A DNA stretch of 64,000 bases, taken from Elsinoe ampelina (taxonomy: Eukaryota). The notes beneath the pieces are model-generated. The model was not told the origin of the DNA. It saw nothing but the letters and a program-made list of their open reading frames with translations, and did not search any database. Location: positions 2,483,320 through 2,547,319 of the forward strand of contig ML992501.1 of NCBI GenBank assembly GCA_010093995.1. The letters run 5' to 3'. The position numbers and the translations under genes were made by a program. Positions 10,188 through 60,269 of this stretch are shown here, piece after piece; within the stretch, counting starts at the first letter, position 1; the number at the start of each line of letters is the position of its first letter.

Positions 10188-10902
10188 ATGGTAAGTTTCA
10201 AGCACTCGGACATATCGTCGGCGACTCTCGTATCCATAGAATCACTGCGCACTCATCGAACTGGACATTCGACACTTCCGCAAGACCGACAAGAGAATTC
10301 GACTTTGTGCGCCCCACCAAGCGACGATGAGCAACAGAATTCAACGCAAAGAGCGAGGAAACGGATGTATAAGCTGGCATGCGTCTTGTCGCTAGATTCT
10401 GGATTATTTACAGCGCAGACAATGAATCGATGGATACCAGAGCCGACACGCCTCGACCAATACAACAGAACGCTTTACAGAATCAGATGACACAAGAAGC
10501 TAACTCCTCTCCCCCAGGTCAACGTCCCCAAAACTCGCCGCACCTACTGCAAGGGCAAGGACTGCAAGAAGCACACCCAACACAAAGTCACACAATACAA
10601 AGCCGGCAAGGTACACATCCACCCAACCCAACCCCCCCTTCCCTGCAGTCCAGCATTCTAACCCTCTCCCTTTCCAGGCCTCGCTCTTCGCCCAGGGAAA
10701 GCGCCGTTACGACCGCAAGCAGTCCGGATACGGAGGACAGACCAAGCCTGTGTTCCACAAGAAGGCCAAGACGACCAAGAAGGTGGTGTTGCGTCTCGAG
10801 TGCACCGCCTGCAAGACGAAGGCGCAGTTGGCGTTGAAGCGATGCAAGCACTTTGAGTTGGGAGGTGATAAGAAGACGAAGGGTGCGGCGCTGGTTTTCT
10901 AG
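10188..10902 (+). CDS. RPL42: 60S ribosomal protein eL42 (L42/L44/L36a)
   Basis: ATG-only exon 10188-10190, intron 10191-10517, exon 10518-10610, intron 10611-10677, exon 10678-10902. Spliced protein [61 protein letters not shown]...LVF. Missed by the ORF track. Confidence 0.97.
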
Positions 10903-11227
10903 ATGGGTGGATCTTGAGAATGGATGGATGGGAGGATGGAGGGGGGTATACATGCATGGGATGGCTGGTTACCCGTCGGACTCGTCATGGGTCATGTGGC
11001 GGTTTGATGGCTGTAGAGGTGTGTTGAGGATGAATACCACGATGCATCTTTGAAGAATCACATCATGTGCGATGAGTGCATCATCTTTATGTGATTGAGT
11101 GAAACCATTTTGCCCTTATCCATGCTGAAGTCTTATATTGATACATGGCTTGCCCCTCCCAGCGAGCAAATGAAACCGAAATCTTGCGACACGTTCTCAA
11201 TCGTCCCCTCACTCAACCCTTTTGCTT

Positions 11228-13823
11228 CTACCCTCTCGCATAAGGATGAAACCCCCTATGCCCCCCCCTCCCACCACCACGATACCCCCTCCCCCCTCCC
11301 CCCGCATTCCTCGGTCCCGTCGGCGCATTCGCAGGCGCATTAGGCGGCTGCCCACCACCCTGCTGCAAAGGCCCACCCCCACCCCGTCCTCGCCCACGGA
11401 ACCCACCCCTACCTCGCCCTCTAAAACCTCCTCCCTGCCCACCGTCATCCATCCCCATCGGCGCCGGCACATCCTCATACATGCCCTCCCAACTACTCCC
11501 CCCGGGGCCCCCTCCCGCGGCACCACCAAACGGACTCCCCGCCCCCTGTCCCTGCGCTTGCCTCTCGTACTTCTGCTGCTCAAACGCCATCTGCTCCTGG
11601 GGCGAGAAGTTCTGCCTGCCGCCCTGGCCCTGGCCGTGTCCCTGCCCACCCCCGCCCCCGCCCTGCTGCATGGCCTGCATCTGCTGCTGCATCATCCTCT
11701 GATCCATCCCCCCGCCTCCTCCCCCTCCCCCGCCACCGTTCTGCTGCATCATGGCCATCATCTGCTGCTGCATCATCGGGTTCATCCCGGCCCCGCCCGC
11801 CATCATCTGCTGCTGCATCGCGTTGAAGTAGTTCTGCATGCGATGCCAGTACGCCGCCATCATGCTGGGCGTCATGTTGGGGCCGCCTCCGCCGGACCCA
11901 CCCGCGCCGCCGCCCATCCCGCCCATGCCGCCGCCCATGGACATGTCTTGGTTGCCCATTCCGCCGCCGCCGCCGCCACCTGTGAAGCCGCCTCGTCCGC
12001 GACCCCGGCCTCGTCCCGCCCCGCCGTCGTCTTCGTTGATCATGTTGCCCCGTGGCTGGGCTTTCTTGACCTCGATGCTCTTGCCGAGAATCTCCAGCGG
12101 GCCCTGCAGGGTGCGGTCCACGGCGGCTTCGCTGTCGAACGTGACGAAGCCGAACCCGCGGGGACGGCCGGTGTCTTTGTCCATCATGAGGGTGGCGTCG
12201 AGGACGCGGCCGAATTGTTGGAAAAAGGTCTTGAAGTCGTGCTCGGTGGCTTCTTGGGAGACGCCGCCGACGAAGATCTTCGAGGTGCGTTCTTGTTCTT
12301 CGCGCGGGATGGCGCGTTTCGGGTCGATGATCTTGCCGTCGAGTTGGTGCTCTTTTACCATGACTGTGTTGACGCATTTGGGGTCGCGGAAGGTGAGGAA
12401 GCCGAAGCCGCGTGAGCGTCCGGAGGCGGAGTCGCGCATGACGGTGCATTCGGAGACTTCGCCGAACTGCGAGAAGTAGTCGCGGAGGGATTCTAGGGCG
12501 GTTAGAGAGGGTAGGGGGGAAGGGTGGGAGAAGGCTCACGGTCTGTGGTTTCCCAGTTGAGGCCGCCTATGAACATTTTGCTGGTCGAGAGTTAGTTGAT
12601 CGCCCTGTACTACACGTGAATGTTCGAAGCGAGGGTGGCGATTGGCGATCCAGTGAGGCATGATCGTTGACAAGATGGCTTGCAGTCTGGCGAACTGATA
12701 AGAGTGTTTTGGGTTTTGACGCAAGCTGAAGAGTCCAGTGTGGAAGGCGAGATTGTGGCATGATCGAATGCTTCATTGGCGGTCGATGGTCATGTGTTTC
12801 GGGAGTAGCTTTTGACGGCAAGTCTTGGTGGCGTCCAACAAATTTGCCCTCCGGACACAAGCTCTCGCCAACACAACCGCAAATGAGGAAGAGACCAGAA
12901 TAGTAACCATGATATCTCGTTTGATGTCTGCTACGAAGGCGTAGTCAACGTTCAATGTGGCTTTATAAAAGCATACCAATCATTGATCTGTCCTGACTCG
13001 CTGCTTCTATCCGGAGCTGAGCTAATCGCTATGATGTGTTTACATCGTCTTATAGCTATTTGCTTGTCCCAGCTGGGGAGCATGTATCGTCGGCTTTGCT
13101 AGGTTCCTGATCGGCTTAGACTGTCCTGGCTCGGTCAACAGACCTTATGCCCGCCATCATGACCTTGTCCCAAAAGACTTGCATGTCAAGACCGCCTCTT
13201 GATTTTCTCGTGCTGTTGCAGGCAGCGAAAGATAACGGTATGCTATAACCTCGACAGCAATTCTGCATTTGCCGCAGCCATGTCCACAGCCTCGACTTCA
13301 CCACCAATTGACCTCTCCAGAGTATCGCGTGTCCAGCAAAGCCTAGATCCAGCCACATTGATCGCCGTGGATGTGTACGTACGGTATGTAGAGTTACTTC
13401 ATAGACAACAAGACTTACCCATCTTCTTTTGTGCCTATCGGCCGCTCTTCATCTTGATGATTGTTCCCGCTGTACGATCCTCCACCGTAGCCTTGACCCT
13501 GATTCGACCAATCTTGACCACCGTGTCCATTCTGTCCATCGTCCTGCTCATAATCACCTTGACCGTTTGCAGTCGCATCATAGGATTGATTGTAATCCTC
13601 GGCTGACTCGGCCTGAACAGCGCTAGGCTCTGCTTGTTGAGCGGGCGCATCTTGTGTCTCTATTGGAGCAGTGGCTTGAGCTGGGGCAGGTTTTGCAGGA
13701 GGTGGTACGTCAACCGCATCGTCATCGGCATAGCTGTCGGACATCAGGATGGTGTTCATCAGAATCATATCATACTCACAGATCTGCGAAGATATCCTCT
13801 TCTGCCTCTGGGCCGTCAGCCAT
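11228..13823 (-). CDS. HRP1: Tandem-RRM hnRNP A/Musashi-like protein (Hrp1/Nab4-like) with Q/M/G-rich and RGG tail
   Basis: Exons 13823-13780, 13733-13419, 12580-12540 and 12492-11228. RRM1 KMFIGGLNWETT...RGFGFLTF, RRM2 KIFVGGV...RGFGFVTF, C-terminal PY-NLS-like RGFHPY. Confidence 0.9.
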
Positions 13824-16273: not shown

Positions 16274-16307
16274 GATGGCATAGCAAGAAATGTAATGAAG
16301 ATCATGA

Positions 16308-17443
16308 TCATGCGTGGCCGTTTGTCTGCTTTGGCGTGTCCGTGAGAGTGATGAGTCCTTCCGCTGGCTGCGACATGTTAGCTCGCCACTCCCACCACGA
16401 AAGTCTAGTACTTACTGGTGAGAACTGCCGCAATTTGACACCAGCCTGCTGGAACAACCTCGCGATCTCAGTGTCCATGTAATAGCTCTTGTTGAAGACC
16501 ACCTCCCTGATACCCACCTGCACAATCTTTATACAGCACGTCAAGCACGGACATGTATTGCAGTATAGCGTGGCATCCGAACCCACCCTCTCCCTCCCTG
16601 CCTCCAGCAAACAGTTTTCTTCAGCATGGATGCAAGCGCATAAACTCAGGGCCGTCCCACCGCCGCCGCCTCCATTGCACCTCGGACACCCACCCTCGTT
16701 GCAGTTCGTGAGGTTGCGGGGCGTCCCATTATACCCCGTGGAGATGACACGCTTCCCCCGCACCAGTACACAGCCTACTTGGCGCCGCATACAATTCGAC
16801 CGCCGAGCAGCGAGGGAGGCGAGTGTCATGAAGTACTGATCCCAAGACGGACGAAGACGGTTCTCATCCGTGAGGTTAAGGGCGTCAAGACACCGGTTCA
16901 GCTTCGCCAACGACGAGGTGGAGTTGAGCAGCTTGATACGAGCCTGTGACGGGAGCGCAGCGAGACCATAGTTCGGGTCGTACATGTGTTGGTCGTCGCG
17001 GAGGACGAATTGCTCCAGTGTTGGCGGCGGTTGGGATAGGGCGACGCAGCGGGTCCGGAAGCGGGTCCAGCGGAGGGAGATGGGGGCGTCGACGGAGATG
17101 AGGATGAAGAAGGGTCGGTGCGAGAGGATGTCGAGGATGTGTTGCGACCAGATGCTGGTGGTGACGAAGTGGGTTGTCCAGGAGGTGGTCACGTGGTCGA
17201 GGAGGGCTTCAGGGGTGGAGAAGGCGCGGGGTGGTGGGGAGGAGGACCGGAGAGTTGCGTCAGAGGCGGACTTTTCTACGGACGGCGTGGATGCTGGTAG
17301 GTCGATTGCGAGAGGTGTGAAGCCATGTTGGTCCACCAGGTAGTCTGCTACGGAATGCTTCCCTGCACAGAGACCTGAGAGAAGGGTGAGGGGGTGAACG
17401 AGATCTGGGTGAAGAGCTTACCTCCACAGATACCGATAAGCAT
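16308..17443 (-). CDS. DCD1: dCMP deaminase with N-terminal P-loop-like domain
   Basis: RPSWDQYFM, RSNCMRRQVG, TGYNGTP, HAEEN and PCLTC zinc-deaminase motifs. Exon 1 17443-17422, introns 17421-17375 and 16415-16368 (48 nt, in frame). Confidence 0.93.
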
Positions 17444-17850: not shown

Positions 17851-20238
17851 ATGGCTTCAACCACTTCAAACCTGCAATATGCTCCTTGGACGACAGAGAT
17901 CGACCTAGGCTTCTATTCAGCGCTTGCGAAACTCAAGCTTGAAAATGACAAGCTCGAGTCGCCCGTACGAAAGGTTCTGGGAACGTATGAACTCAGACCA
18001 CGAGATGCGCCTGAGCGATCCACATCAATGCAGATTCACACAAGCGCTTTGACCGAAGCCAAGTAAGTCAGGTACTGTGGTATGGTGTGTACAAGCTGAC
18101 ATTCCGCTAGAGTCCCGCTCAACAATTGTCGAAGTGAGGGCATGATACGCAACTTCAACACGTTGGAGGAGTTCAGAGAGTACGACAGATCTGCACATAT
18201 GGAGAGAGCAGGCAGGATGGTGAGTGGAAGCGATGTCTTTGTGTGGCTATCCATTAACCTTAGTTCACAGATCTGGGATGCGATCAATGATGGCTCCATC
18301 TTCTCATGCCCTTCCTTACTTTCTTCATTCTCCGCCATCTGCTTTGCGAATCTCAAGAAGTATACTTTCAATTATCATTTCGCATACCCAGCACTTCATT
18401 CCGATCCGCAATGGAAGCGTCAGACATCGTCCAAGGTACGACAACTATCCTCGAGTGAGACGACACAATTGGTCAGTCGAGTGGGAACCTACCAATACGG
18501 CGTAGACGAACGTCAACGAGGCTTCTTTCTGGTCAAGAGGACTCGACCAGGCTCATCAGCGACGTCTCAGGAGACAGAGGCTTCAAAGCTGCGGGCAGGG
18601 AATGAGGCCAGTGGCAAGCAGGAGACTTCAGCCGATGATGCCGATGCAGAAGAATCCTTCGACAACTCATCAAATCCTTTCCAAGTTGCATCACTAGCAG
18701 CATACGAGAATGGCTTCTTCGATGGTGTGGCAACTGACGATCAGTATGTCTGCTTTGTCGATCCCTCGACGTATCCCGACAATCCTGGCTGGATGTTACG
18801 CAATCTGTTGGTCCTCGTGAGGCAACGGTTCAAGCTCAACAAAGTCCAGATTCTGTGTTATCGCGACACCAATAGCCGCAGAGAGCATCCCACCAGTATC
18901 ATTCTCAACCTCGAATGTGGTGATCAAGCCACACCAATTGAGCCGGCGCAGCAATCACCAAAGGTGACTGGCTGGGAGCGGAATGAGAATGGCAAGGTTA
19001 GTGCACGCACAGTAGACCTGAGTGCCTATCTGGATCCGACTCGGCTTGCAGACCAGGCTGTAGACCTGAATCTCAAGTTAATCAAATGGCGAATCGCACC
19101 TTCAATTGACCTGGACATCATTAAAAACACTTCTTGTCTATTGCTGGGCGCTGGAACTCTCGGATCGTATGTTGCACGGAATCTCATGGGTTGGGGTGTG
19201 AGAAACATCACATTTGTGGACAACGCCAAAGTCAGCTACTCGAATCCTGTCCGACAGCCACTCTACACATTCTCGGACTGTTTAGATGGGGGCGCAAAGA
19301 AGGCAGAGAGGGCGGCCGAGGCTCTGAAGCAGATCTATCCAGGCGTCAACGCTCGAGGCATCATGATGTCTGTACCCATGGCTGGTCATCCGATCACGGA
19401 CGAAGCAGCATCAAAGCGAGATTATGAGCAGTTGTACGAGCTGATCTCGAGCCATGACGCTCTATTTCTGCTCATGGATACACGAGAGTCGCGCTGGCTA
19501 CCCACAGTCATGGCCAAGTCGCTGGGGAAAATTGTCATCAATGCTGCTCTTGGCTTCGACACATACATGGTAATGCGGCACGGTCTACGCACGCCAAAGA
19601 AGCGACGGACATCCTCTTCTTCGTCCGGTCTGCCCATTTCGCATCGCTCACAGGAATCTCATTCAAGACCGACATCACCTACCGAAACGAGGGACCCGCC
19701 ACAGCTCGACGAGTTGGGGTGTTATTTCTGCTCCGACGTCGTTGCTCCCAAAGACAGTCTCAAATCCGCCACTCTCGACCAGCAATGCACAGTCACTCGT
19801 CCTGGAGTCGCGCCAATCGCCTCTGCCCTGGCAGTCGAGCTCCTGGTCTCCATTCTACAAGCACCAGAAAAGGGTGCTGTAGCCGCCCCCGATCCATCAT
19901 CAAAGTCACAAGAGACACCACTTAAGCCGGGAGAAAAGCCTCATCCTCTCGGCACCGTCCCACATCAGCTCCGAGGTTTCATGTCAAACTGGAGCACGAT
20001 GACCATCAAAGGACGGGCATACGACTGCTGCTCGGCATGCAGTCCGAAGATCGTAGGCGCATACGAGCACGACGGGTGGGCGTTCGTCAAGAGAGCGATC
20101 AGTGAGCAAGGCTACGTCGAGGAAGTAAGCGGTCTGGCAGAGGTGCAGAGGCGTGCAGACGAGGTTGCTGATGATGTCGACTGGGATGACGAAGAGGGTG
20201 AGCTCGAGGAGATTGGGGCTGAAGGGGAGCTCATCTAG
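17851..20238 (+). CDS. ATG7: Autophagy E1-like enzyme Atg7
   Basis: [19 protein letters not shown]...[47 protein letters not shown] and catalytic [11 protein letters not shown]. Introns 18063-18110 and 18220-18270. Confidence 0.97.
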
Positions 20239-20380
20239 TCGGTGTCTCGCAGCATTCACATTCCCGCACTCATCAACCACCCCGGGAAACTCTTTTAGTG
20301 ATATGATACATTAAGGTTCAGCCAGGCGTTCAGGTCATCCCATAGCTCTCTCTCCGAACCCCACAACCTCACACTCATGC

Positions 20381-22117
20381 CTACCTCCCCTCCCTCCTCC
20401 TCATAACCTCCAAAACATCCTTCGCACCATCCTTATCCCCCTTGCGTCCCCCCTTATTCCGCGTCCTCTTCCTCTTCTCCCTCCCCTTCCCCCCTCCTCG
20501 CCCCTCCTCATCCCCGTCTCCATCCTTCCCCCACTCAGACAACTTCACCTTCCCCCCTTCCTCCCCGTCATCATCCTCATCAAACCTCCCCCCACCAAAA
20601 CCGAGATCCAGATCCTCGTCGTCGCGCCCCATGCTGGCCATTAGCTCTGCGCGTTTCTTCTTCAGCCGGGCTTCTTTCTCGAGACGCTCGAGGCGGGTGT
20701 CTGCGTCTTCTTCATTGTCGTCGTCGGCGTCGGGTTTCGCCTTGTCACTAGCGTCTGCGGCGGAGGGGTCGGTGGAGTCGCCATCGCCCAGGTGCATTTT
20801 GAATTTTGCCATGTTGCCCGCGCGGGAGATGGCGGAGAGGAAGGAGGGGTCTTGGAAGGGGTTGGCGGTTGGGGCGGGGGTGAGGGTTTCGTCGGTGGAT
20901 GGGGCGGGGCGGGTGGTGGAGAAGTAGTTGCGTGGTTGGGAGGGGTGGGGGGAGGGGAGTGCGGGAGGGGTTGAGGCGTGGGTAGGGTCAGGGGCGCGGT
21001 CGGTGGTAGCTTGAGCTGGGGCAGAGGCTGCTGGGGGCTTGGGCTCGTTGATCTCGCCGTCTTCCGCGTCCGAGTCGCTGGAGTTGCTGGAGGAGGAGTC
21101 GTCTCCGACTAGGCCGGCGAGGGGATCGTAGTCGTCGGCTACGTCGTCGAACATATTGTCAAGAGTATCTTCTTCGGGTGCTGCTGGTGAAGCTTCCTTG
21201 AGCTTCGGCATGACCACGTCTTCGTCCAGGAACTTGACTGATCTGTTCGCCTCCTCGATGAGTTTGTCTGGTGGTGGCGCCACTTTTCGCACCTTCTTCT
21301 TGATCTTGCCGTTCTCGTCCCTTGTGATGATCACCTCGCGGCCTTTGCTGTCGATCATAGTCCGTGGCTTCTCCTTTCGCTCCTCGATCTTCCTGAACTT
21401 GTCTCCTAGATCCGGCCGTGCTTGTAATCTTGCTTGTGCTTCCTGTGCCCTCTTCGCCTTTAGCTCCGCCAGTATCGCGTCTCGGTTTCTCTTCGCTCCA
21501 GTCGCAGCGGTCGCCTCGCTGTTCAGCTCTCCCTTCTTTTCAATCTTCTCCTTCTCCCTGGTCTGCACCTCCTTCGCTTCTAGTTCCTCAAAGTCCTCGT
21601 CTACCGGCTCGTCCGACTTCTCCTCCTCGCCTTCACCGGTCATGACATCCTCCCCTTTCCTCACCCTCTCCAGCAATTTTCGATCCAGTCCTCTCACAAG
21701 ATGCGTGCTCTCCACATCTCCCCCCGCGATCTCCTCGCGCAACCTCTCGAACTCCTCTTCCTCGAGCTCCCCTTGGACGACCTTCCGAGCGAGAGCATGG
21801 ATCCTCCGCTCCTTCTCGTCGCGTACGTCCTCGCTGTCATTGTTTAGGCGCTCGAGAGCACGGTTCGTGTAGCCTTTGCCGAGATCCAAAGTTTTGAGCT
21901 TTTTAGCGGGGCGCTCGAGAGTGGAATCCGAGGAGGCAGCAGTCGATTTGAGGTTGTAGCTTGTCTTGGCTGAAGGGCGTATGTTCCGTGGAATGAAGGA
22001 AGATTTGCGCGAGCCGAGAGAGGTAGTGCGTGGTGGGGGAGGGGAGGCAGAGGTGGGCTTGGTGGAGGGGTGGGAGGAGTTCGATAGCAGGAGTGAGCGG
22101 AAGTCGGAATTGTTCAT
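20381..22117 (-). CDS. RED-like (IK/RED_N) spliceosome-associated protein
   Basis: Starts MNNSDFRSLLL and contains GY.NRA.ER and GGDVESTHLVRGLDRKLLERVR (RED_N signature). Single exon. Confidence 0.8.
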   Translation of the reverse strand: MNNSDFRSLLLSNSSHPSTKPTSASPPPPRTTSLGSRKSSFIPRNIRPSAKTSYNLKSTAASSDSTLERPAKKLKTLDLGKGYTNRALERLNNDSEDVRDEKERRIHALARKVVQGELEEEEFERLREEIAGGDVESTHLVRGLDRKLLERVRKGEDVMTGEGEEEKSDEPVDEDFEELEAKEVQTREKEKIEKKGELNSEATAATGAKRNRDAILAELKAKRAQEAQARLQARPDLGDKFRKIEERKEKPRTMIDSKGREVIITRDENGKIKKKVRKVAPPPDKLIEEANRSVKFLDEDVVMPKLKEASPAAPEEDTLDNMFDDVADDYDPLAGLVGDDSSSSNSSDSDAEDGEINEPKPPAASAPAQATTDRAPDPTHASTPPALPSPHPSQPRNYFSTTRPAPSTDETLTPAPTANPFQDPSFLSAISRAGNMAKFKMHLGDGDSTDPSAADASDKAKPDADDDNEEDADTRLERLEKEARLKKKRAELMASMGRDDEDLDLGFGGGRFDEDDDGEEGGKVKLSEWGKDGDGDEEGRGGGKGREKRKRTRNKGGRKGDKDGAKDVLEVMRRREGR

Positions 22118-22365
22118 GGTGAATTTGAGCGCACGAGGCGCTACGTGAAATATACACGCTCCGGAGGTGAGATGCGCGTGTTGTCGTGGAGCGAAATACT
22201 GCACGGCTATGGGTGTAGCATGGTAGGAACAATTTCACGTGATGCTTGGCGCAAATCTTCCCTCCGTCCATCTCAGAGAGGAATTCATTCTTCGCAACCA
22301 TGATATCTATGTTCCTATACAGCATGCAACGCGATAGTGCAGCGTGATACTATGGAGCTGGGCCA

Positions 22366-23754: not shown

Positions 23755-26700
23755 ATGATCGCCCTGATCGCTGCTGCCGCACTTTGGCTTCCCGCTCTAG
23801 TTCCGGCCGCCTGCGTCCGGGACGATTCAAACATCGCTACTCTACAACGCGAGGTTAGCGACCCTCTCAAATTCTGCAGGTTCTGGATTGATACTGCGGT
23901 AGAGACCGAAGGAAGTCCGCTCTCTGGATTAGCTGCTAGGAACATCTCAGAGTCCTGCAGATGCATTCTTGGCGTGCAGGCATGGGTGTTCACTACAACG
24001 TCTACAGCTCCCTCAGTCGCCAGAGCTACTGGGCCCTGTGGGCGTGAGGAGAAACAAGTCGTCTCGGTCCGCAATGGTTTCTTGCGACCGGCACGTTTCT
24101 GCAGTTACTACAATCTGCGAGTGCGAGAGAACAGTCCGCTACAAGATGTCAGGGCGTCCAGATTCTCCAGCATCTGTTCATGTGCATTGCGATCTCCGAC
24201 TCTTTTCAAGGAAGCTCGCCTGTTACCAACGTCTTCGACCGCAGCCACGACTTCTGCGCCTGCCACCACATCTCTGTCCACGTCTTCATTCACAGCAAGC
24301 AGTGTACGGTCGCCAACCGCCACCAGCACAGCAACTACAAGCACGACCACGCAGTCTTCACGCCTGTCTTCGTCATCGGAAGGACAGACGCTCGCAGTCT
24401 CCTCAGTCTTTAGCTCAAGCTCCAGTGTCAGTTCTGTCTCTAGCTCCGTCTCGTTCACCAGTTCAAGCACGACTTCTAGTACCATATTCACCTTCAATTC
24501 AGTTCCCAGCTCCGCTCCAAGCTTCAGCTCCAGCTCCAGCTCCATCTCGAGGTCTGGCTTGGAAGCAGTATCCACGATATCTCCGTCAGTCAGCTCCGCT
24601 TCAGATAGAACAGCAACGATCTCAACATCCTCGTCCTCCAGCTCTGGTCGCCCGACCGTTTCAGAGCCGACTCCGTCCTCAACCATCGAGCCTTCGTCTG
24701 TGTCCATCCAGCCGTCTTCCATACCCACCTCCACCTCATCGACCACGATTTCTTCTGCACAACAAACCACTACGACATCAGCCAGCTCAATTGCAGCTGC
24801 AACAACCTCGGATACAAGATCCATATCGTCAAGTACGACTTCTCCTTCATCTCTTTTGTCCGTCTCATCTTCTACTTCCTCTACATTACAGGCAACTACC
24901 TCTCCGTTATCTGTCACGATTGCTTCAGACTCGCGCACAGCGTCGTCACTACCGGCTCCTGGATCAGGTACGAGCACGACCACTGGATTGTCTAGCTTAG
25001 CGAGCGGCACTTTTACCACGGCGAGATCAACTTCTTCCTCGGCAGCTCCGAATCCCTTTACATCTGGGTCCGCGTCGGCCTTTCCAACTTCTACTACTAC
25101 TTCGCTCTCATCCAGCTCCATCACTGCAGTCTTTTCTACAACTTCTTCCCTGTCGGCCTCTCCTATCACCTCCGCTGTATCCATCACGTTCTCCACGTCG
25201 TCATCTACAGCGTTCTCTCCGGTTGCCGGAACATCTTCCACTTCATCGTCGTCCGCCATTTTGTCAGTCACAGCGATCTCAACAACGACAGCCCCGTCTT
25301 CTTCGACTTCGTCCGCTTTGTCAGCTTCAATCGCATCGTCACTCTCGTCCTCTCTCACGCCATCGGTGTCTCCTTCTTCAACGGCCGCTCCTGTCTCAAC
25401 AACGTCATTCATCCTATCTACCTCTTCTATCCCTACAACAGCTTTCCTACCGACGTCATCCCCGTCGTCAACATCTTCTGCTCTGCAAGCAACAACTCTT
25501 ATATCTGTATCCTCTTCTCTAACGATATCTTCTACGATTTTGACGTCTTCTCTTTTGCCGACATCTTCGATACTGACAGCCTCTTCCCCTATCTCAAGTC
25601 CTCTCACTCCATCAATCACATCTCTTTTACCAACGTCCCTCACTGTACCGACTTCTCCCAGCTTACCATCTTCACCCGCTCTACCGACTTCTGCCGATTC
25701 ATCGATTCCTTCTCTTCTGCCGTCCTCTCCCACTTTATCGACCACTCTCCTACTGCCAACGTCTCTCTTGTCGTCAACGACTTCTCTTCTATCGACTTCT
25801 CTTCTATCAACTTCTCTTCTATCAACTTCTCTTCTATCAACTTCTCTTCTATCAACTTCTCTTCTATCAACTTCTCTTCTATCGACTTCTCTTCTCTCGT
25901 CATCTTCTTCTGTTCCATCTATTTCACTATCATTACCTACCATCTCGTTGAGCATAGGCTTATCTGTATCAGCAAGCCTGTCTGCATCGGCAAGCTTATC
26001 TGTGTCAGCAAGCTTATCTGTACCAATCACCAGTATACTGAACGTACCATCACCGACTCCGACGCCAACTTCGACAAGTAGCACGACGTCCATATCCCTA
26101 TCATCCTTGTCAAGCACGGTTATACCTCTGTCGTCCACAAGCTTGCTCAATTTACCGACTACCACGACTACCACGACATTGACAAGTAGCACGACGTCTA
26201 TATCCCTACCATCCTTGTCAAGCACGGTTATACCTCTGTCGACCACAAGCTTGCTCAATTTACCGACAACCACGACCATCACGACTTCGAGAACTTCTCC
26301 ATCTTCCTCGAGCAGTTCCTCGTCATCAACATCAACATCGACCAGATCAAGTACAACAACATCCATCACTGTCAGCCCAAGCTGCGGCGTAAACAACAAT
26401 TACACCTACGTCTCCCCAGACGGTCAGCTCTGGCGCCAATCCGACACGCAAGATTACTTGAGCGACCTCAGCACCTTCAAATCAACCAGTATCCGCGCCT
26501 GTATAAACGCTTGTGCCCTAAACCCCGCCTGCCAGGCTGTGGTTTTCGTGGCTGGCGGCGCCAACGATTGCTTCTTCAGCAGCACAGCAGATCGATCACG
26601 CGGCCCATTTCCGTCCAACATCATCGCCTTCTCCGCCGAACGCACACCCGGCCAGTCATGTCTCTCCACCACTACGCCTGTCTGCCCACAATCCGACCTC

Positions 26701-40481: not shown

Positions 40482-40896
40482 ATTGAGGTATTTCGAGCCT
40501 CCAAGTGTGCCACGGGAGGGATTTGATATTATTGTTGGTTGATATCGGGTTGTCGGCTTGATATCGTAGAGGGGCAAGGTCTGTTTTTTCTGCACGCAAG
40601 ATTTCCAGCTCAAATCGACTGGAATTGCTCGGTGACAGGTGATATCTTCTCGAATGGCGTTGAATTTCTGCCAGTATATATTTAGGAGAGGTAAGTACCT
40701 GTGCAATCGACTTTCAAGAGGAGATCGGATCCTGTCATTGAGACCGAAAGCCGATGTGCAATTGTCGATAAAGATGCAGATGCGGTCAAAAAAAGGCTTA
40801 TCGATAAGCTCAGCCCTATGAAACCCTACATCAACCCTAAAGATGAAGCATCGAGCTTCACATCGTCGTCTCATCCATTGTCGTGCATTGTGAACG

Positions 40897-42642: not shown

Positions 42643-42783
42643 TCTACCATTCGTCCTGTGTACACATTATACCCCACTGGCATGTCTCGCCAGCATATCT
42701 AGCGCTTGTATCATACGCTCTTGACAGGTCGCGTGCCACTCTAGGCTTCCTTCTACTCACTTGTCAGCTCCGTCCTGCCCTTG

Positions 42784-44684: not shown

Positions 44685-45195
44685 CATGGCAGTGATGGAG
44701 GATGCTTGGGATGGCAATCGATAGTGAAGCTGTTGGCAAACGTCGGCGCATGGAGAGGCATCCGCCCGGCTTCAGCAAGCGCATGGGCCAAGAGAACGAG
44801 CACGCGCAGGGCCACGACAAAGGACACGCGAGGCAAACCACGCGAGGATCACAACAAAGGACGCGTCACGAGACAAAAGACAAAGTGTGAAGTTGGCAAT
44901 TACGGATATCATTCCTTGAGAACTCCCGATACTCGTAGAGAGCCGCTGTCTGGTTTATGATACAAAGCAACCCACGAGCTGCCCAAGCAGCAACTCAGCT
45001 CCAGCCATCCCAAGAAACCCCATGATCTTGACGATCTTGATTGACACCCTTCGCAAATAAAAAGCCTCGTGACCATGATGTGGGTGTCGTCAGTCGAGGC
45101 GCAGCAGTCGTAAACATTCCATGCAGAGAGATGATGTAGAGAAGAGGTTGAAAAGCGGATTGAAGAGTGGTAGAAGGTTGAATGATGAGAGGCGT

Positions 45196-45666
<471 letters not shown>

Positions 45667-46099
45667 CTAGACTGTGTTGAGGAGAAGAAGTCAAGATTAT
45701 AAGTGTCTCTTGCAAAGCAGAGGATCTCACAAGCTCGGGATCAACGCCGCAGCCCGTGATTCTCTTGCTTGATCCCGCTAAACCGGAAAGAGCAGATCAC
45801 GCCGCACGGACGCCAAAAATCATGAGCAAGTCGCCCAAACAGCGCTAACAATTATTCACTTTGAAGTTCCTTACGATTGCACGGATTCCAGCAACCCCAA
45901 ACTTGCGTTGTTGATTCTGGGCTTTGCCTTTGCCGCCTTGTGATTCAAGGTGATCCGTTCACAGCCTGCGCCCGCGGATTCTTCTATATTTACGGCTCCC
46001 CCCACTAACCTTTCCTCTTTCCATCCACTCACAACACAACCTCTTCCGACAACCACTTCATCATCCACCCACATCAACTTCATCAATCAACCATTTACA

Positions 46100-46674
<575 letters not shown>

Positions 46675-49336: not shown

Positions 49337-52016
49337 ATGCGTTACTGTCTTCTCGCACTGATTTCCTTCTCTCTCCGTTGTGCTACCGCTCAGAATGGCA
49401 CTTTCAACTTTTCTAACAGCACAGCGACGTCGGTCTCTGACACGACGACCACCTCCCCGAATGAGAGTGTAAACGGCGACGACATCCCCATAGCCACGCC
49501 GACCTCTTCTTTCCCTAAGCCGACGCGAACCAGGATCGGGCAGGAGACGATCACCGCAGGACCAACATCATGGATAAGCACATCCTTTGACTGGTCTCTT
49601 GATGTTAATCGGTTGTTCCCGACATATCTCCCGGAAGAGAGGGCGAACTTTCAGGCCCAGTGGGACTGTGACCAAAAGATATTCGCATTCACCTCGACCT
49701 ACATCAAGCCGACAGTCCCCTTGGGCAACATTACCTCGATATCCTACAAGACCTTTGGACCGTTCACGACCGAGATCCCAGTGACCTCATTCTTCAACAG
49801 GATCACGTACTCGCATTGTGATGGCGTCCCTCGATATGGCTACAAGGGAGGCGTGCCATCTTACACCGTGAGCACATCAACGTCGACGATTCGTGGCCTT
49901 TCGACTGGCACGTGGACATTGCGAGAAGATGTTACCACGCCGCCTGTCCCTTACCCATGCACGGTGGATGACATACTACCAGAAGGCTATTGTAGTGCCT
50001 TTCTGACTGTGTATACTGACTACACGGCCATGTCCACTTCTGCCTATTCCGCGGGCACTGAATATACTAACACACCGTTCGAGATACCCTCGTCATGCCG
50101 GCTGGGTCTCAGGCGCTTACGAAGGACTTGCGTGGTCCGCGTATCAGAAGCTACGATGCTCTATTGTAAGTGGAGGAAGCAAGTATGTTGTTTCTCTACT
50201 AAATGTCCCAGGGCCACCTACTGCTCGGTCAGGGGACTTTTGCCAATCGACGACCACTCCGCCTACCACTGTCGCTCCCGCTACTGGTGGTAATAGCTCG
50301 TCTCAGATAGTGACGCTGAATGGTACTGAGTACACTTCGCCATGGGTATACATCACCTACCACTCCATTACTTACAAATCGAAATGGATATCGACATATG
50401 GCATCTTGGGGACCAAAATACCAAGCCTTGTCTTATCCTTCCTTCCTCACGAAGTATCTTCCATATGCGGACTTGGTCGAGGAGTAGTGCAGACCAAGCC
50501 GTTCGACTTCAATGATCTCCAAGGAGATGTTCCATGGTCAGCCTACAACTGTTCACTCCAATGCATCGAGCCCAGCGAGTGCCTACCCATGGACCAGCGT
50601 CTCAACCCCTACAATCCATACTTGGCTTGGCCGCAGACATTTCTCGATCTCCTACACAGCTGGAACACCTACGACCCCGACACCTGCTCCTTCGGCTTCG
50701 ACGACTCCGGCATCCCTGACCCACCACAACTGCTGACCACGGCTCTGCACCTCTCAAAACCCGCGGGCAGCCCTGCCGGTAGTACGACAATCATCGGACC
50801 AGTCACGGCATCAGGCCTGAAGCCGACCTTGATACTACCGAAACCAGTCTCAAAAACCACAGTCACCGGTCCATCGCCCTCGTCTCCCGCCCCGACAAAG
50901 TCTGCCGAGCCAGTCAAGCAGCCGAGTATAGGCGACATCATCATAAGCATGATCAACCAGCCTCCCGGCCGGCCTCAAGATACCTCCCCCAAGCCTAACG
51001 CGCAAGGAGAAGACCCCATCCAGGTCCCAACGGTCTCCGGTCGACCAAACGCCAACCAACCACATCCCGAAACCCCAGATCCCACCCCAACACCCCCATC
51101 CCCCCTCGCCCCTCCCCAAGCAGCAACCATCACCATCGGCCCATCCCTCATTCCCATCATTCACCTCCCAAACAACGCCCACGTCCTGGACGGCTTCACA
51201 TTCTGGGCTGGCGATGCCGTGACGACAGCAGGACAGACACTTTCTTTCGCTCAGGACGGGGTGGTCGTCAACGGTATATCCACAGCGACGTACACACCTG
51301 CGCCACTCGTCACCGTGTCTCCCGCCCTTGTCCCCAACTCTGGCTCTGATTCCGACTCCGACTCCGACTCCGACCCCGGCCGTGACTCTGCCCCTGCCCC
51401 TGCCTCTGACCCTGGCACTGGCGTTGGGCCGGGAGGCGGCGGCGGCGGGACAGACGTAGGTGGAGAGTCAGGAGGGTGAGAGGTGGAGGTGCTCGGCGGT
51501 CCGTTGGCGGGAGGCGATCGTGTGCTCCCGGCAGCGTTGATGGTAGGAGGGGAGTGGGTTGTTTTTGGCGGCGAGATCGAAGTGGCCGGGACGAAGGTGA
51601 GGTACGATGCTGGAGGGTTGGTGGTGGGAGGGGAGAGGGTGGGTGTGCCTGTCCGGGGATGGAGGCGGGTGGAGTTGGAAGGGGGGGAGGTTTGGATTGT
51701 TGGTGCTGCTACGGGTGGGGCTGATGGGGGGTCAGATGGAGGGGGAGACCAGAGGGGAAACGGAGGAGGGGAGGGGGGTCAAGAGGGATGGGGAAAGCAG
51801 TTGGGTGTATCGGATGGAGTGGAAGTGGTGGTGTCTACCAGTACGAAGGGAGGATTGTTGAGATCGACTACTGCGTTGCTGCCGTCGTTGAGTACGGAGG
51901 GTAGGGCGGTGGAGACGGCAGTGGGAGGAATAAGTTCTGCTAGCTGCATTCGGGCCAGGTTGGGGAGGGCGTATTTGATCGTCCCGATACTGGCAAGCAT
52001 GGTCTGGTTCTGGTAG
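49337..52016 (+). CDS. Secreted/cell-surface Cys- and Ser/Thr/Pro-rich protein; in-frame TGA at 51477-51479 separates a GPI-like C-terminal segment
   Basis: Signal peptide MRYCLLALISFSLRCATA; intron 50166-50211 gives LYWPP...DFC and TSPWVYITY. The same frame resumes after the TGA and runs to a hydrophobic tail AYLIVPILASMVWFW. Confidence 0.72.
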
Positions 52017-52194
52017 AGGTGAAGCGTGGGCAAACGAAAGGACAGTCCTGGACGTCTGGGTATTATCTTCATTTACTCGTGATGGCTATAATACACCTCT
52101 CATTCACACAAGCCGGGCTTGGTTCTCCAACTACCCGCGTTTCCTCCCTCCTCCCTCCCACCTTCACTCTTACTCTGCCCGCCCCCTCTTCTGA

Positions 52195-53937
52195 TCAAAC
52201 CTCACTCCTCCCCCCACCCCCCTCCCTCTCCTTACGCATCTCCCTCTTCCTCCTCCCCTCCTCCACCTTCTTCTCCCGCCACTCGCACCCCTCGGCAAAA
52301 GCACATATCCTGCACTTGAACGCCTCCTCAATCTCCACGCCCCTCGTCGGTCTCTCCCCTTTCCACCAGGCCATCTCGTCCTTGATGTACTTCTCCAGTC
52401 GCCGCTCATCGTGCACGAACATCTTCCTTCCCAACACGGTGCCGGGACGAACTTCTCCTTGGCTGCGTCGGGATGCGAGGCCTGAGGCGCGGAATTCTGC
52501 TTGTAGCAGAGGGGAGATGGCGGCGGGGGTGCGCGCGGGAAGGGTGGAGAGGTGGAAGGTGAGGCCGAACTCCTGCGTCATGAGGTCCCAGAGGGTGGAG
52601 AGGGTGTTGTGCGCTAGCAACTCGTCCATGGAGTCTTGCGGGGAGGACATGGGAGGTGCGTAGTCTGGGTCTTGTTCTGAGGGAATGGAGGAGGAGAAGT
52701 TGTAGTCTAGACTGCCGATTTGGGCGATGAAGGTGTCTGAGAAAGGGATGATGGGGGAGACGCGGTAGCGGACGAAGACTTGGTCCGAGGGGACTTCGGA
52801 CATGGAGAGTTGGGTGAGGAGGCGCCGGTAGAGCATTAATTGGAGGAAGGTGGGGCGGAGGGAGACTTCATCTGTTGGAAGAGAAGGGGAGGTGCGGGTC
52901 TTGATGTCGGTGATGTAGACTTTGCGGTCTTTCGGTGGGGTGGTCGGGCTGCTAGCAGAGAGGGTTTGGGATTGGGGGGCGGCATTTGTGTTTGTGGTGA
53001 GAAAGGAGCTCAGGGTTGACTGGTTGGGATCGATCTCTGAGGAGGACTTCTTAGGTCTTCCTCGCTTCTTCTTGTCGACCAGGGCGGATTCAAGTGCTGG
53101 GTCCGGGCATTTGAATGAGAGCTCATCGATGACACCGTTCACGACCTGTCCCTCGAGAACCCCCCATACCTCCAATTCGCGTGTCATGCCAGTCGCTCGC
53201 AGAGTTCGCAGTCCTTGTATGATATTCCAGATCCGCAACGCAAACATATCCTCCCGTGTCACTGTCTCGACAGGAATGGCGATGTGTACCTCCTCCTCCA
53301 GCTCCTTATGTACGGAAGAACCTTGCTTCATGGCCGGGGTCTGCTTGACCCTCCCATACTTTGACAAGCTGTACATATACTGCAGCTCACACCACGATGG
53401 CGATACCAGATCCGTGACCGACATGGGCTTCTTGGGCTGGGTCCTGAAGCGTTCCAGAGGAGACTTGGTCTCATCCTGATTCTCTACCGCAAATGGAGCA
53501 AATAGGCGTCGTTGTCGTTCGTCACCTTGTGCTATAAGACGCTACAGTCAGTCAGATATCCTCTCCAGGTACTACAGGCTCCAGAACTTACGTGAAAACG
53601 CGACCCTGTTCCTCTCGTCGTACTCAACTTCCACCGAAGCCTCTCTGAGCGGACCGTCGTTATCCGGAACCTCAAAAGTGATGCCATCTTCGTCGATATA
53701 GGTCTTGGTCCGTCGAGGCCTAGGGGTAGTTTGGTCTGAGACTGGCACGCGGGCGACCTGAGGTAGAGGGTTGTGCTCCTCTATAGACTCGATAGTGATG
53801 GCAAGGAGGGGTTGCGACTCTGCCCTCACGAGCAGGTCGGTGATGGTATCCTCGTCGATGTCAGAGCCATAGTCGCTCTCTCCTGCAGCTACTATGGCGG
53901 CCGATCTGGACGCAGCGGCCCTCGTGGTAGTCGGCAT
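52195..53937 (-). CDS. EXO5: Exonuclease V (Exo5/Dem1), Fe-S cluster nuclease
   Basis: MSVTDLVSPSWCELQY, GSSVHKELE, TRELEVWG...GVIDEL, ITDIKTR, QLMLY and KCRICAFAEGCEWR. Intron 53591-53532. Confidence 0.92.
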
Positions 53938-57630: not shown

Positions 57631-59370
57631 ATGGTGCACCTCCACGACTTTCTCCACCGCCGCCAGCTTGGTGAGCGGTTGAGAGAAGAAGCGAGCAAGC
57701 TTGTGAATGGCCCGCTGGCTAGCCCATTGGAACGCGCAAAGCAGGATGAGGGTGTTGCGACTGTCTTCTCGGTCGTGTATGTGACGGCCTCGGCTTCCTT
57801 CACCGGACCTACAGCTGGGTTCATTACACAGACTGCCGGCAATGCACCCTCGAATACGAACAAGGCTACTAGCGATGCTGCAAAACCAACGACCAGCCAA
57901 AGTCAGAATAACAGGGATGGCAGCAACAACAACAACAGCAATGCCGAGCAATCGAGTCGTACCAGCGCTCGCGTGTCTTCTGTGGCTTCGACGGACGCCA
58001 GCACACCTTCAAGGACCGCTGTAGTTGGCACACCTGTGCAGGCTACCCGATCAGCAACCTCTGCAGCCTCCGCTTCAGCTGCCCCAAGTGAGCAAATCAG
58101 TCAGGAAGGAGGAATGAGTGGTGGAGCAAAGGCTGGCGTTGCATTCGGTGTCATCGCTGCCCTTGCCCTGGTAGCTGGTATCATCTTCCTCGTCATCCGT
58201 AAGAAGAAGCAGCAAAAGGAGGAACAACAGGAGTCCCACAACCTTGACAATGAGAAGGCAGGCTTTGGCTTCGCAGCCATGAACCACACCCCTCGTAATG
58301 ACAACAACACCAGCAGCCGTGCGCCTCGACTCAGTCTTCGTCCCGTCACCCAATTCTTGCCTGGTATTGGAGAGCCCAAGGTCCAGGAAATGACCAGCGC
58401 GACCGGTGGGCTCAACAGCTTCCTCCCACCACCTCCTCAACAGCAGCATAAGAACTCGTGGGACCAGCCAAGAGAGACAGCCGCCAACGATGCCGCGAAC
58501 CCATTCGGCAGCGGGGCCGTGAGAGTCAACAGCCCGGCAGCAGAGAGAGCAGCAGAGAATGCTCCCATCCCTGTGCCAGCTCCTGTCCCTGCCGCTCCTG
58601 CCGCCAACCCATTCGCCGACCGACCTTCAACAAGCCGCTCAATCTCACCTATCGAAGACTCACCTCTTGCCACCGCTCCCAACTCACCACCCAAGGCCGA
58701 GATCGGCACCGCTGCGGCAGTAGCTGTTGGCGCCGCTGGCGTCTCTGGTAGCCCACCCAAGGGTCCTAACAACGTTCACCGCGTTCAGCTTGACTTCAAA
58801 CCCTCCATGGAGGACGAGATCGAGCTTCGCGCTGGCGATGTCGTTCGCATTCTCCACGAATACGACGACGGCTGGGTGAGCACCACCCTATCATCCCTAT
58901 TCGATCCACAGACTAACATCTTCCAGGCACTCTGCTCCCGTATGGACCGCTCCAAGCAAGGTGTCGCCCCCCGTACCTGCCTCTCCAAGCTCCCCCTCAA
59001 GCCCCGCCCTGCCGGTCCACCACCCGGAATGCGTCCTCTGAACGGCCGCCCGGAGTCACCTGGCATGCGCAACTTCTCCGGGCCCCCCGCGCCCGGCCAC
59101 GGGAATATGTACCCCGCCCCTCTCTCCCCCAGTATGCCCAACATGAGCATGACACATGGTCCCCAAGGACGCGCCCGCGCTCACTCCCACTCACAATCCC
59201 AATCGATGGACAACGGCAACCGCCAGAGTCCGCAGATGATGCAGTCTGCTGGTTTCGGAGCGTCGCCGCCGAGAGATCACAGGCGGTCGGCGAGTATGGG
59301 CCAGCTCGGGCTGGGTGGCAGTCCGAGTAGGGTGCCGGCGAGGAAGCCAGTGCCGGGGATGGCGATCTAG
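57631..59370 (+). CDS. Single-pass membrane protein with Ser/Thr ectodomain and cytoplasmic SH3 (Fus1-like)
   Basis: TM GAKAGVAFGVIAALALVAGIIFLVIRKKK; SH3 VHRVQLDFKPSMEDEIELRAG...EYDDGW|ALC...QGVAPRTCL. Intron 58876-58926 (51 nt, in frame). Confidence 0.82.
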   Translation: MVHLHDFLHRRQLGERLREEASKLVNGPLASPLERAKQDEGVATVFSVVYVTASASFTGPTAGFITQTAGNAPSNTNKATSDAAKPTTSQSQNNRDGSNNNNSNAEQSSRTSARVSSVASTDASTPSRTAVVGTPVQATRSATSAASASAAPSEQISQEGGMSGGAKAGVAFGVIAALALVAGIIFLVIRKKKQQKEEQQESHNLDNEKAGFGFAAMNHTPRNDNNTSSRAPRLSLRPVTQFLPGIGEPKVQEMTSATGGLNSFLPPPPQQQHKNSWDQPRETAANDAANPFGSGAVRVNSPAAERAAENAPIPVPAPVPAAPAANPFADRPSTSRSISPIEDSPLATAPNSPPKAEIGTAAAVAVGAAGVSGSPPKGPNNVHRVQLDFKPSMEDEIELRAGDVVRILHEYDDGWVSTTLSSLFDPQTNIFQALCSRMDRSKQGVAPRTCLSKLPLKPRPAGPPPGMRPLNGRPESPGMRNFSGPPAPGHGNMYPAPLSPSMPNMSMTHGPQGRARAHSHSQSQSMDNGNRQSPQMMQSAGFGASPPRDHRRSASMGQLGLGGSPSRVPARKPVPGMAI

Positions 59371-60269
59371 GTTCGCCGTCACGGAGGTGAAGCAGGGTGC
59401 ACATAGCAGAGATGTGGTGCGATGGTAACGACTGATGGCCGGCTGGCGTTGATGGATCCGAGTCGCTTTGGCTCGGATCTTTGCTTATACCCTTTTTTTT
59501 TCTCGATCCAGATGCTGTCTACAGTGGGGCTAATAGTTCCGCTGGGGACGATTTTGATTCTTTAAAGCTGTTGGTCGAGGACCGATGGTCGATCTATCTT
59601 ATTCACGAAGAGGGGAGAGGAGATGGACGACGAGAGGAGAGTACGGACAGAAAGAGGGGGGATGGGAGGAAGGACGTGAGGAGGTGGGAAGTCAGAGGAG
59701 GGGGGAGCCAGGAGGAATGTGTATCTATGCTGATTACCTTTCTCCATGAATTGTATTTAGATCCAATAAGATGTTAAGAACCATATCCATCGTCCGTAAC
59801 GAGGTGTCTGGCAGTATGTCTGTTTTCCTGGTAGAATCTCCGTGATTGACACTGGTGGCGAAGGTCACGTGCTTGGGCTCCGGAACCTCACCACTTCCCG
59901 GTCGACCACAAAACCATCAACACACCTTCCAGTACCATCATGACGTAGACCATGCCATTAATACCATACTGCATCTGTCTCGTCCGATGGACCACCTCCG
60001 TCGCACCCAACCCCCAACCCAACCCCGGCCCCAAGCTCCGGGCATGAGGGGCCGAAGCCCACCCACCCCGATGCTTACATGTTTACACGCGGGCACATAC
60101 CGCCTCAACTTGACAAGATGATTATAGACCTGCACGCCCCCGGAGTCGCGCGCAGGACTAACCTCTCCTCTACTGCATTCACACGGGTCCCCCGTCTCTA
60201 CCTCGTCTTCCCATCTCCGTTTGAAGACACCAGGACCGTCGAGACAAGAGGCAGAAGACAGAAAACACC

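Follow-up and report, generated by a model that had tools for sequence, protein, structure and literature searches.

Paired C-rich and G-rich blocks in a window of the Elsinoe ampelina genome follow the sense strand and the 3′ ends of genes

Why does one strand of a fungal chromosome pass again and again from a strongly C-rich block to a strongly G-rich one? The question is raised by a stretch of 64,000 nucleotides (nt) of Elsinoe ampelina (assembly GCA_010093995.1, contig ML992501.1, positions 2,483,320-2,547,319, + strand), hereafter the window, which is nuclear DNA of a filamentous ascomycete. An earlier note on this DNA had listed 13 such block pairs and had ascribed them to a localized bidirectional process of mutation or repair, centred on the flips and independent of gene orientation. 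We find instead that the flips follow the sense strand of genes and are anchored to gene 3′ ends. The pattern is very probably the gene-anchored fungal GC skew described by McLean and Tirosh in 2011 (PMC3315797); the phenomenon is thus already in print and is not new as a discovery. Its best explanation, to which we give a probability of roughly 60%, is a transcription-coupled, strand-asymmetric substitution bias from G:C to C:G.

Each of the 13 pairs was recovered in place on the + strand as a C-rich block followed by a G-rich block. GC skew ranges from -0.27 to -0.82 in the C blocks (z -3.6 to -10.9) and from +0.27 to +0.71 in the G blocks (z +2.9 to +11.9), and the G+C content of the blocks is 0.53-0.70, as compared with about 0.52 in neutral stretches. 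Absolute GC skew exceeds 0.3 in 24.4% of 200-nt windows and 0.5 in 7.3% of them. In 30 first-order Markov simulations, the corresponding values were 0.17% on average (maximum 0.54%) and 0%. An excess of G or C homopolymer runs was considered and rejected, the runs of at least 5 nt (54 G and 68 C observed, 57 and 51 expected under a first-order Markov model) fitting the model and merely clustering in the blocks.

The relation of the blocks to genes was analysed in 32 window genes anchored on their stop codons; start codons, derived from open reading frames (ORFs), are less well established than stop codons. At the very end of the coding sequence (CDS), over its last 150 nt, 28 of the 32 genes are G-skewed on the sense strand (mean +0.30), whereas in the bin from -750 to -600 the sense skew is positive in only 6 of 31 (mean -0.15). 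The four genes without a G-skewed 3′ end are H3, H4, one of unknown family and the DUF6314 gene (0.00). We compared this contrast with circular shifts, in which the whole annotation is slid round the window so that block structure and gene layout are both kept. The observed contrast of 0.41 was reached in none of 2000 shifts, the largest shifted value being 0.24.

The polarity of the switch within single genes was assessed with a two-segment split test of third-position skew on 30 ORF pieces, using 500 codon shuffles and 500 protein-preserving synonymous-codon shuffles. The split runs from sense C to sense G in 25 of the 30 pieces, including all 14 significant ones, and the five negative splits are all non-significant (p>=0.116). 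Together with the circular shifts, this contradicts the supposed independence from gene orientation. The 14 significant splits sit 141-999 nt upstream of the stop codon, and the flips do lie in the 3′ parts of genes, as had been proposed.

An automatic flip caller placed all 13 C-to-G flips within CDS spans, which make up 70% of the window; their density is 13 in 49 kilobases (kb), about one per gene. Six of the ten G-to-C flips are intergenic and two more lie at gene edges (Fisher p=0.002 versus the C-to-G flips). The four outside intergenic DNA are found 9 nt before the ATG7 stop, at the 5′ edge of H4, at the start of an intron of the HeH gene and within the RED-like gene. Many flips adjoin close convergent genes, another point on which the earlier note was right: the G-to-C return flips are sharpest between convergent stops 60-330 nt apart, and these stops are flanked by the strongest blocks of the window.

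A bidirectional process of mutation or repair centred on the C-to-G flips and indifferent to gene orientation, for example a replication origin, would suit the sharpness of the flips and the seemingly symmetric doublet of trough and peak around them, and a C-to-G jump along one strand is also the polarity of a replication origin. The anchoring tests largely refute this reading, which we regard as very improbable. A process that ignores genes does not agree with C-to-G flips that are all intragenic and follow the sense strand, with G-to-C flips at gene ends, or with a G block that abuts the stop codon in 28 of 32 genes. Replication origins in yeasts are tens of kb apart, and one flip per gene is far denser than that.

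The sense-strand profile of window genes consists of a mild C bias around the start and along the gene body, a C trough about 300-900 nt before the stop, and an abrupt G block that runs up to the stop. Skew averages -0.17 over the 150 nt that precede the ATG, with 4 of 21 genes positive, and -0.10 over the first 150 nt of the CDS, with 5 of 21 positive. Most of the G block is inside the CDS, though it extends about 30-500 nt past the stop. Because a C-then-G profile is its own reverse complement, genes of the + and - strands look alike on the + strand. The earlier observation that the pattern equals its reverse complement and occurs in genes of both strands is therefore correct; the orientation independence stated along with it is not.

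Silent sites show how far the switch goes. Codon use had been said to change in mid-gene from C-ending to G-ending in APN1, DIM1, EXO5, the HAD hydrolase gene and the Zn-cluster transcription factor (TF) gene, and we confirm this in all five: along the sense strand, skew at four-fold degenerate sites passes from about -0.7 to -1.0 to about +0.7 to +1.0, and in each gene the observed two-segment contrast was reached by 0/500 codon shuffles and 0/500 synonymous-codon shuffles. A like switch is found in the GH127, RRM, RED-like, WD40 and SH3 genes. Four-fold skew goes from -0.81 to +1.00 in the RRM gene (split z=+8.6, reached by 0/500 shuffles), and the RPL44 split gave p=0.002 with codon shuffles and 0.012 with synonymous shuffles. 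None of the 500 codon shuffles reaches the observed split in 14 of the 30 ORF pieces, and none of the 500 synonymous shuffles does so in 12; pooled over the 19 window ORFs of at least 300 amino acids (aa), four-fold skew changes from -0.40 to +0.42.

Base frequencies at four-fold sites are A.20, C.47, G.13 and T.19 in C blocks, A.225, C.32, G.25 and T.21 in neutral stretches, and A.15, C.13, G.55 and T.17 in G blocks. The change is an exchange of G and C only, A and T being nearly constant. GC at these sites is 0.605 in C blocks, 0.567 in neutral stretches and 0.676 in G blocks. Two-fold sites behave alike: in C blocks, neutral stretches and G blocks, respectively, C/(C+T) is.87,.63 and.42, and G/(A+G) is.35,.61 and.87. 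Four-fold AT skew is near 0 in the two block types (+0.03 and -0.05). This fits neither the deamination of an exposed single strand, which would add T, nor a classical replication skew. Sense-strand A is more frequent than T in both block types (A.236, T.185 in G blocks; A.232, T.171 in C blocks), so that the blocks are G/C swaps and not mirror images of each other. This too argues against a process centred on the flips, a replication origin included, since the four-fold AT skew does not mirror the GC skew.

Could the proteins themselves make the skew, through their composition, through low-complexity expansion or through codon optimization? Some features point in this direction. Amino-acid usage differs strongly between block types: Pro, Ser and Thr account for 46% of residues in C blocks (10.9, 20.7 and 14.6%) against 9% in G blocks (2.0, 3.9 and 3.1%), while Gly, Glu and Arg rise from 7% to 38% (Gly and Glu from 1.8 and 1.9% to 17.0 and 12.2%); the C-block figures are inflated by a Ser/Thr stretch of the PAN-domain gene. 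That stretch, a 2.2-kb C-rich segment absent from the earlier list (24300-26541, +), encodes a Ser/Thr/Pro-rich region and is amino-acid-driven: skew is -0.6 to -1.0 at codon positions 1-2 and near 0 or positive at four-fold sites, so that here, unlike in the listed blocks, the skew reflects the protein sequence. The G block of the GH127 gene likewise holds a low-complexity insertion, in which units of about 12 nt recur.

For the 13 listed pairs, by contrast, the four-fold and shuffle tests refute an origin in the protein, which we hold to be extremely unlikely overall. The skew does not disappear at silent sites; it is there equal or stronger, and four-fold sites are where it is strongest. 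It survives synonymous-codon shuffling with the protein fixed, in the 12 ORF pieces at 0/500, and is not matched by codon-shuffled controls. It is also carried by an intron and by non-coding spacers. The earlier note had rejected gene-wide codon optimization as an explanation, and its judgement is borne out; amino-acid composition cannot explain the pattern either. The window DIM1 protein provides a small sample in which replacements lean with the local skew: window-specific replacements go 12 to 6 toward C-rich codons in the C half and 17 to 10 toward G-rich codons in the G half. In this small sample, the replacements suggest that composition drives the protein and not the reverse.

The skew thus reaches beyond coding sequence, into at least one intron and into non-coding flanks. 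The GH127 intron at 31333-31438 (GTACGT...ACAG, 106 nt), which lies in the sense C block and by our reading of the frames joins two reading frames without a leftover base, has the composition A13 C67 G7 T19. The 3′ flank of RPL44 (10903-11065) has a skew of +0.47, and the 3′ spacer of the SH3-domain gene (59371-59870) one of +0.31, followed by -0.22 in the next 500 nt, upstream of a FrsA-like gene. Window introns are short, with fungal splice signals; a regular-expression scan for them mixed true and false introns and was used descriptively only. Introns of related loci, sought through alignment gaps in tblastn searches, gave two candidates only, too few to use.

We then compared the window with other fungi, using 80 loci on fungal metagenome contigs found by a search with the window DIM1 protein, 59 of them non-redundant (684 kb). 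Among DIM1 orthologues with enough aligned codons, third-position skew averages -0.37 over the first 60 codons and +0.24 over the last 60. The window DIM1 is the most extreme of the set (-0.58, -0.64, -0.81, -0.12, +0.17, +0.79, +0.84 along the gene). In the 59 loci, the last 150 nt are G-skewed in 82% of 242 ORFs of at least 250 aa (mean +0.19), and four-fold skew in these ORFs goes from -0.20 to +0.08. The block content of the window (24% of windows, standard deviation of skew 0.27) tops the range of the other loci, three of which reach standard deviations of 0.255-0.263. The window is therefore a strong example at the upper end of a range and not an isolated outlier; the other loci share the profile but show it more faintly.

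The order WD40-DIM1-APN1 of the window (37374-42642), with WD40 convergent with DIM1 and APN1 divergent from it, is kept in many contigs: a WD40 neighbour was found in 17 of the 80 loci and an APN1 neighbour in 22. In orthologues of all three genes, a C-rich trough is likewise followed by a rise close to the 3′ end of the gene, but the codons concerned differ from those in the window. The flip therefore does not depend on features of the protein, and flips that recur near gene ends at shifting codons speak further against a centre of activity at the flip itself. As separate observations on this set, the loci with the WD40-DIM1-APN1 order include L002-L008, L011, L018, L034, L036, L037, L044 and L047, and some loci form close pairs (L077/L078, 90.6%; L044/L046, 88.9%).

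Long genes show that the C bias is not flat and deepens about 100-250 codons before the stop, directly ahead of the G peak. The nine window ORFs of 500 aa or more average -0.17 in the plateau, -0.35 in the trough and +0.66 in the last 50 codons; the trough lies below the plateau in 6 of 9 (p=0.5), too few for a test. In 85 long ORFs of the other loci (at least 500 aa), the values are -0.12, -0.25 and +0.06, and the trough is below the plateau in 52 of the 80 usable in both bins (Wilcoxon p=3e-4).

The return flips between genes suggest a different geometry, in which the intergenic gaps are the active centres. Double-strand breaks in nucleosome-depleted promoters and terminators would be resected there, G would accumulate in the 3′ single-stranded tails (by way of abasic sites and Rev1, for example) and GC-biased gene conversion would lift G+C, leaving DNA that is G-rich to the left and C-rich to the right of each gap; the intragenic flips would be the meeting points of neighbouring zones. 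The position of the G-to-C flips at gene ends (8 of 10, edge cases counted), the raised G+C of the blocks, both overall (0.56-0.70) and at four-fold sites, and a polarity that fits a gain of G on the 3′-ended strand all agree with this proposal, and the block lengths of 300-800 nt resemble the lengths of meiotic resection in yeast. It does not predict that the C trough of long genes adjoins the G block in the 3′ part instead of the promoter, nor that the skew of the other loci peaks within the CDS and has fallen to about 0 over the 150 nt that follow the stop, nearer to the supposed break. The internal cycles of the RED-like and HeH genes have no intergenic centre, and biased gene conversion alone would predict no strand asymmetry. 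We consider breaks in the gaps a quite unlikely cause.

A gene-anchored pattern could also be kept by selection on the transcript or on transcription instead of being imposed by mutation. Three versions can be formulated: a template that is first C-rich and then C-poor could pace RNA polymerase II through limitation of cytidine triphosphate, as McLean and Tirosh suggested; a G-rich sense 3′ end could promote R-loop-dependent pausing and termination, useful for tightly packed convergent genes; or C-rich and G-rich segments of one messenger RNA (mRNA) could pair at long range. In line with selection, the G peak ends near the stop in other fungal loci, as in PMC3315797, and the strongest blocks of the window flank its closely spaced convergent stops. 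Yet a requirement for convergent neighbours was not seen in the other fungal loci, where the G peak of genes with tandem neighbours (+0.15, n=30; +0.20, n=20) is about as strong as that of convergent ones (+0.24, n=49; +0.22, n=53), the neighbours being called roughly, from ORFs only.

Pairing and G-quadruplexes lead to a similar balance. In predicted folds, the blocks of one gene pair heavily by composition alone (105-268 inter-block pairs). A specific hairpin between the C and G blocks of a gene was rejected, however: in none of 7 pairs is the folding energy better than that of within-block shuffles (z -1.6 to +0.6), and there is no sequence-specific complementarity. G-quadruplex motifs number 29 in the window (12 on the + strand, 17 on the - strand), as compared with 1.1 expected from Markov simulations. 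All lie within blocks, most densely in the RRM gene, the RED-like gene, GH127 and the gene at 51 kb, which could be taken as a sign of selection. In G blocks they occupy the sense strand and in C blocks the template strand, and therefore look like a by-product of the skew. Strong selection at every site would moreover be needed to bring four-fold positions close to fixation for G or C over hundreds of nt, and the position of the flip varies between orthologues. We judge selection to be an unlikely basis of the pattern, though the strongest competitor of a mutational one; of a mutational and an adaptive cause, the mutational seems the more probable.

The transcription-coupled substitution bias that we prefer would change sign a few hundred nt before the end of the transcript, and its cause would not be selection on protein or translation. 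For the G-rich 3′ block, one biochemical route has been documented in budding yeast. As stated in the part of PMC6063437 used here, bypass of abasic sites by Rev1/Pol zeta inserts mostly C, so that G replaces the lost base; the transcribed strand is cleared by transcription-coupled repair, and R-loops raise mutations on the non-transcribed strand. Abasic sites on the non-transcribed strand, bypassed in this manner, could yield a G-rich 3′ block, with A, C and T turning into G on the sense strand and G+C going up. The four-fold shifts in G blocks relative to neutral stretches (G +30 points, C -19, A -7, T -4) match this expectation. A candidate for what sets the switch point is RNA polymerase II that runs antisense or reads through at gene 3′ ends, and a link to R-loops or termination at gene 3′ ends, which the earlier note had put forward among its options, is possible.

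A more specific idea is that the feature is more than a smooth gradient along the gene, namely a discrete 3′-anchored doublet that marks the meeting of sense RNA polymerase II with an antisense or read-through polymerase arriving from the 3′ side. Both polymerases would bias their own non-template strands in the same way, in proportion to the time they dwell there. We think this rather unlikely. If it were true, one rule would cover the opposite skews at the two ends of genes, which have had no explanation since 2011, and the process would in this lineage saturate silent sites and rewrite protein tails.

Several observations weigh against a transcription-coupled bias. The Rev1 route predicts sense G-richness along the whole gene, opposite to the C bias of gene bodies; it leaves that bias and the trough unexplained, and there is no established route for the C trough. 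The pattern is absent or weak in H3, H4, u49322, the TBC gene, ATG7 (weak) and the MYND gene (C-rich throughout). In the divergent H4/H3 pair (45196-46596), the sense strand is C-rich throughout, with no 3′ G peak and with values of -0.19 and -0.25 in the last 150 nt. In the RED-like and HeH genes there is a further, internal cycle, for which a single 3′-anchored rule does not account; four-fold skew in successive 50-codon bins of the former is -0.68 -0.65 +0.33 +0.27 +0.80 +0.17 -0.62 -0.91 -0.86 -0.53 +0.86 +0.71. In the 59 other loci, G skew falls to +0.03 right past the stop, which fits a cause linked to coding sequence or mRNA better than one linked to termination. The intron evidence comes from a single intron in a strong block checked for frame fit, and fungal introns may be pyrimidine-rich anyway. 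Finally, geometry is the sole ground for the link to transcription, and at equilibrium mutation and selection are indistinguishable from composition.

The coordinates of the blocks and flips are collected in the table.

Table. Skew blocks and flips of the window (positions in nt from its first base; flips between genes are from the flip caller)
Feature	Position	Strand	Blocks and flips
HeH/Src1 gene	7751-9865	+	two C-to-G cycles; internal G-to-C flip ~9161 at intron start
RPL44 (PF00935), last exon and 3′ flank	10423-11131	+	C 10423-10751; G 10725-11131; flip ~10693; stop 10902
RRM protein gene	11068-12855	-	sense C 12314-12855 (5′ part); sense G 11068-11879 (3′ part and flank)
dCMP deaminase gene	16308-17436	-	sense C 16892-17436 over 5′ untranslated region/promoter; coding part weakly G-rich
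RED-like gene	20207-22267 (gene 20381-22117)	-	two sense C-to-G cycles, flips ~21832 and ~20680; internal G-to-C ~21192
PAN-domain gene	23755-26991	+	
Zn-cluster TF gene, 3′ part	29661-30681	+	C 29661-30292; G 30280-30681; flip 30282; stop 30593
GH127 gene, 3′ part	30572-31749	-	sense C 31071-31749; sense G 30572-31179; flip 31124; stop 30655
WD40 gene, 3′ part	38716-39359	+	C 38716-38972; G 38993-39359; flip 38939; stop 39260
DIM1 rRNA dimethylase gene	39250-40264	-	sense C 39843-40264; sense G 39250-39821; flip 39785; stop 39339
APN1 AP-endonuclease gene	41255-42672	+	C 41255-41663; long G 41690-42672; flip 41690; stop 42642
HAD hydrolase gene	43800-44812	+	C 43800-44309; G 44335-44812; flip 44287; stop 44684
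Unknown-family gene	50512-52100	+	C 50512-51301; G 51376-52100; flip 51412
EXO5 gene	52008-53145	-	sense C 52410-53145; sense G 52008-52486; flip 52437; stop 52195
SH3-domain gene	58544-59867	+	C 58544-59224; G 59465-59867, mostly past stop 59370, non-coding
G-to-C flip between convergent TF and GH127 stops	30594-30654	.	
Further G-to-C flips between convergent stops	~11101, ~20229, ~39281, ~52060		
G-to-C flips at tandem gene ends	~9880, ~59877		
G-to-C flip at divergent H4/H3 promoter	~45723		

Two rows of the table call for comment. The flip of the dCMP deaminase gene is near the start codon and not at the 3′ end, and the split within its CDS is non-significant (p=0.51). In the unknown-family gene, an in-frame stop (51477-51479) parts two ORFs of the same frame (50007-51479 and 51480-52016), and neither ORF matches a Pfam family. 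Most of the G block follows this stop and may thus belong to a long non-coding 3′ region; alternatively, an intron that removes the stop may be needed.

The surrounding genes are ordinary housekeeping genes of filamentous ascomycetes, as judged from Pfam searches of long reading frames. They encode, among others, a DDHD lipase, the HeH/Src1 protein, ribosomal protein L44, the RRM protein, a TBC GTPase activator, dCMP deaminase, ATG7, the RED-like protein, a MYND-finger protein, the PAN-domain protein, the Zn-cluster transcription factor, the GH127 glycosidase, a sugar transporter, mitochondrial S17, the WD40 protein, DIM1, APN1, the HAD hydrolase, the divergent H4/H3 pair, Mpv17, EXO5 and the SH3 protein. 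In the GH127 gene, the C-terminal Pfam domain (71 positions) is spread over ORF residues 142-326, with about 115 extra residues (30655-31130, -); the insert in its G block is G-rich low-complexity sequence, the repeated units lying around 30990-31060. A 389-aa ORF without a Pfam match (11246-12415, +) runs opposite the RRM gene, and in several blocks the skewed, stop-poor composition creates such long false antisense frames. A 752-aa ORF on the strand opposite the PAN-domain gene (24108-26366) is probably a stop-poor artefact.

What such blocks do to a genome is of practical concern. The skew alters codon choice and amino-acid composition within single genes, opens false frames on the opposite strand such as that opposite the RRM gene, and clusters G-quadruplex motifs. 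Gene finders, codon-usage measures and selection tests that assume one composition per gene would be misled in such fungi. A lineage with nearly saturated silent sites, such as this one, would in turn be a sensitive system for tests of mutational against adaptive causes; full-text literature searches found no paper after that of 2011 that explains the fungal skew.

Among known systems, the skew jumps at replication origins (for example in the part of PMC3459929 used here) resemble the window in that GC skew jumps upward along one strand. The window flips differ from them in being spaced like genes, intragenic and sense-following, and in having no coupled AT skew at silent sites. In human DNA, CpG-island promoters and terminators combine GC skew with R-loops (Ginno et al. 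2012, 2013, as cited in the portion of PMC4911931 drawn on here). The human terminators resemble the window in having a G-rich non-template strand at gene 3′ ends, tied there to R-loops and termination. Unlike in that system, the 5′ skew of fungi has the opposite sign, and the G block of the window is mostly upstream of the stop, within the CDS. For budding yeast, the same portion of PMC4911931 describes R-loop sites without a GC-skew pattern and cites the fungal skew only in a remark that yeast genes have little GC skew.

Fungal genes themselves provide the closest parallels. A 2005 study (reference 9 of PMC3315797), as summarized there, described a C excess on the coding strand near fungal gene starts; the window shares the C bias before the ATG, whereas its striking blocks are in 3′ parts and the study, in that summary, concerned the 5′ end only. 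McLean and Tirosh found that in most fungi, many filamentous ascomycetes in their data sets included, coding strands carry a C bias at the 5′ end and a G bias at the 3′ end (PMC3315797, BMC Genomics 12:638). They saw this skew at four-fold sites, into promoters and untranslated regions and with a flat positive AT skew, found that it shifts amino-acid usage, remarked that the G peak ends near the stop codon, rejected C-to-T deamination as the main cause and left two hypotheses open, one mutational and one adaptive (PMC3315797). The window agrees with their description in its 3′ G bias and upstream C bias, the C bias of starts and promoters, its presence at four-fold sites, its extension into flanks, a flat and mildly positive sense AT skew, and the shift in amino acids. 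It departs from their three-line model with a flat middle, compared here by its text only, in having the C trough directly before the G peak. Their results are given as species averages, with 33% of Candida albicans genes individually significant (PMC3315797); unlike these averages, single genes of the window contain blocks of 300-1000 nt in which four-fold skew goes as far as -1.0 and +1.0.

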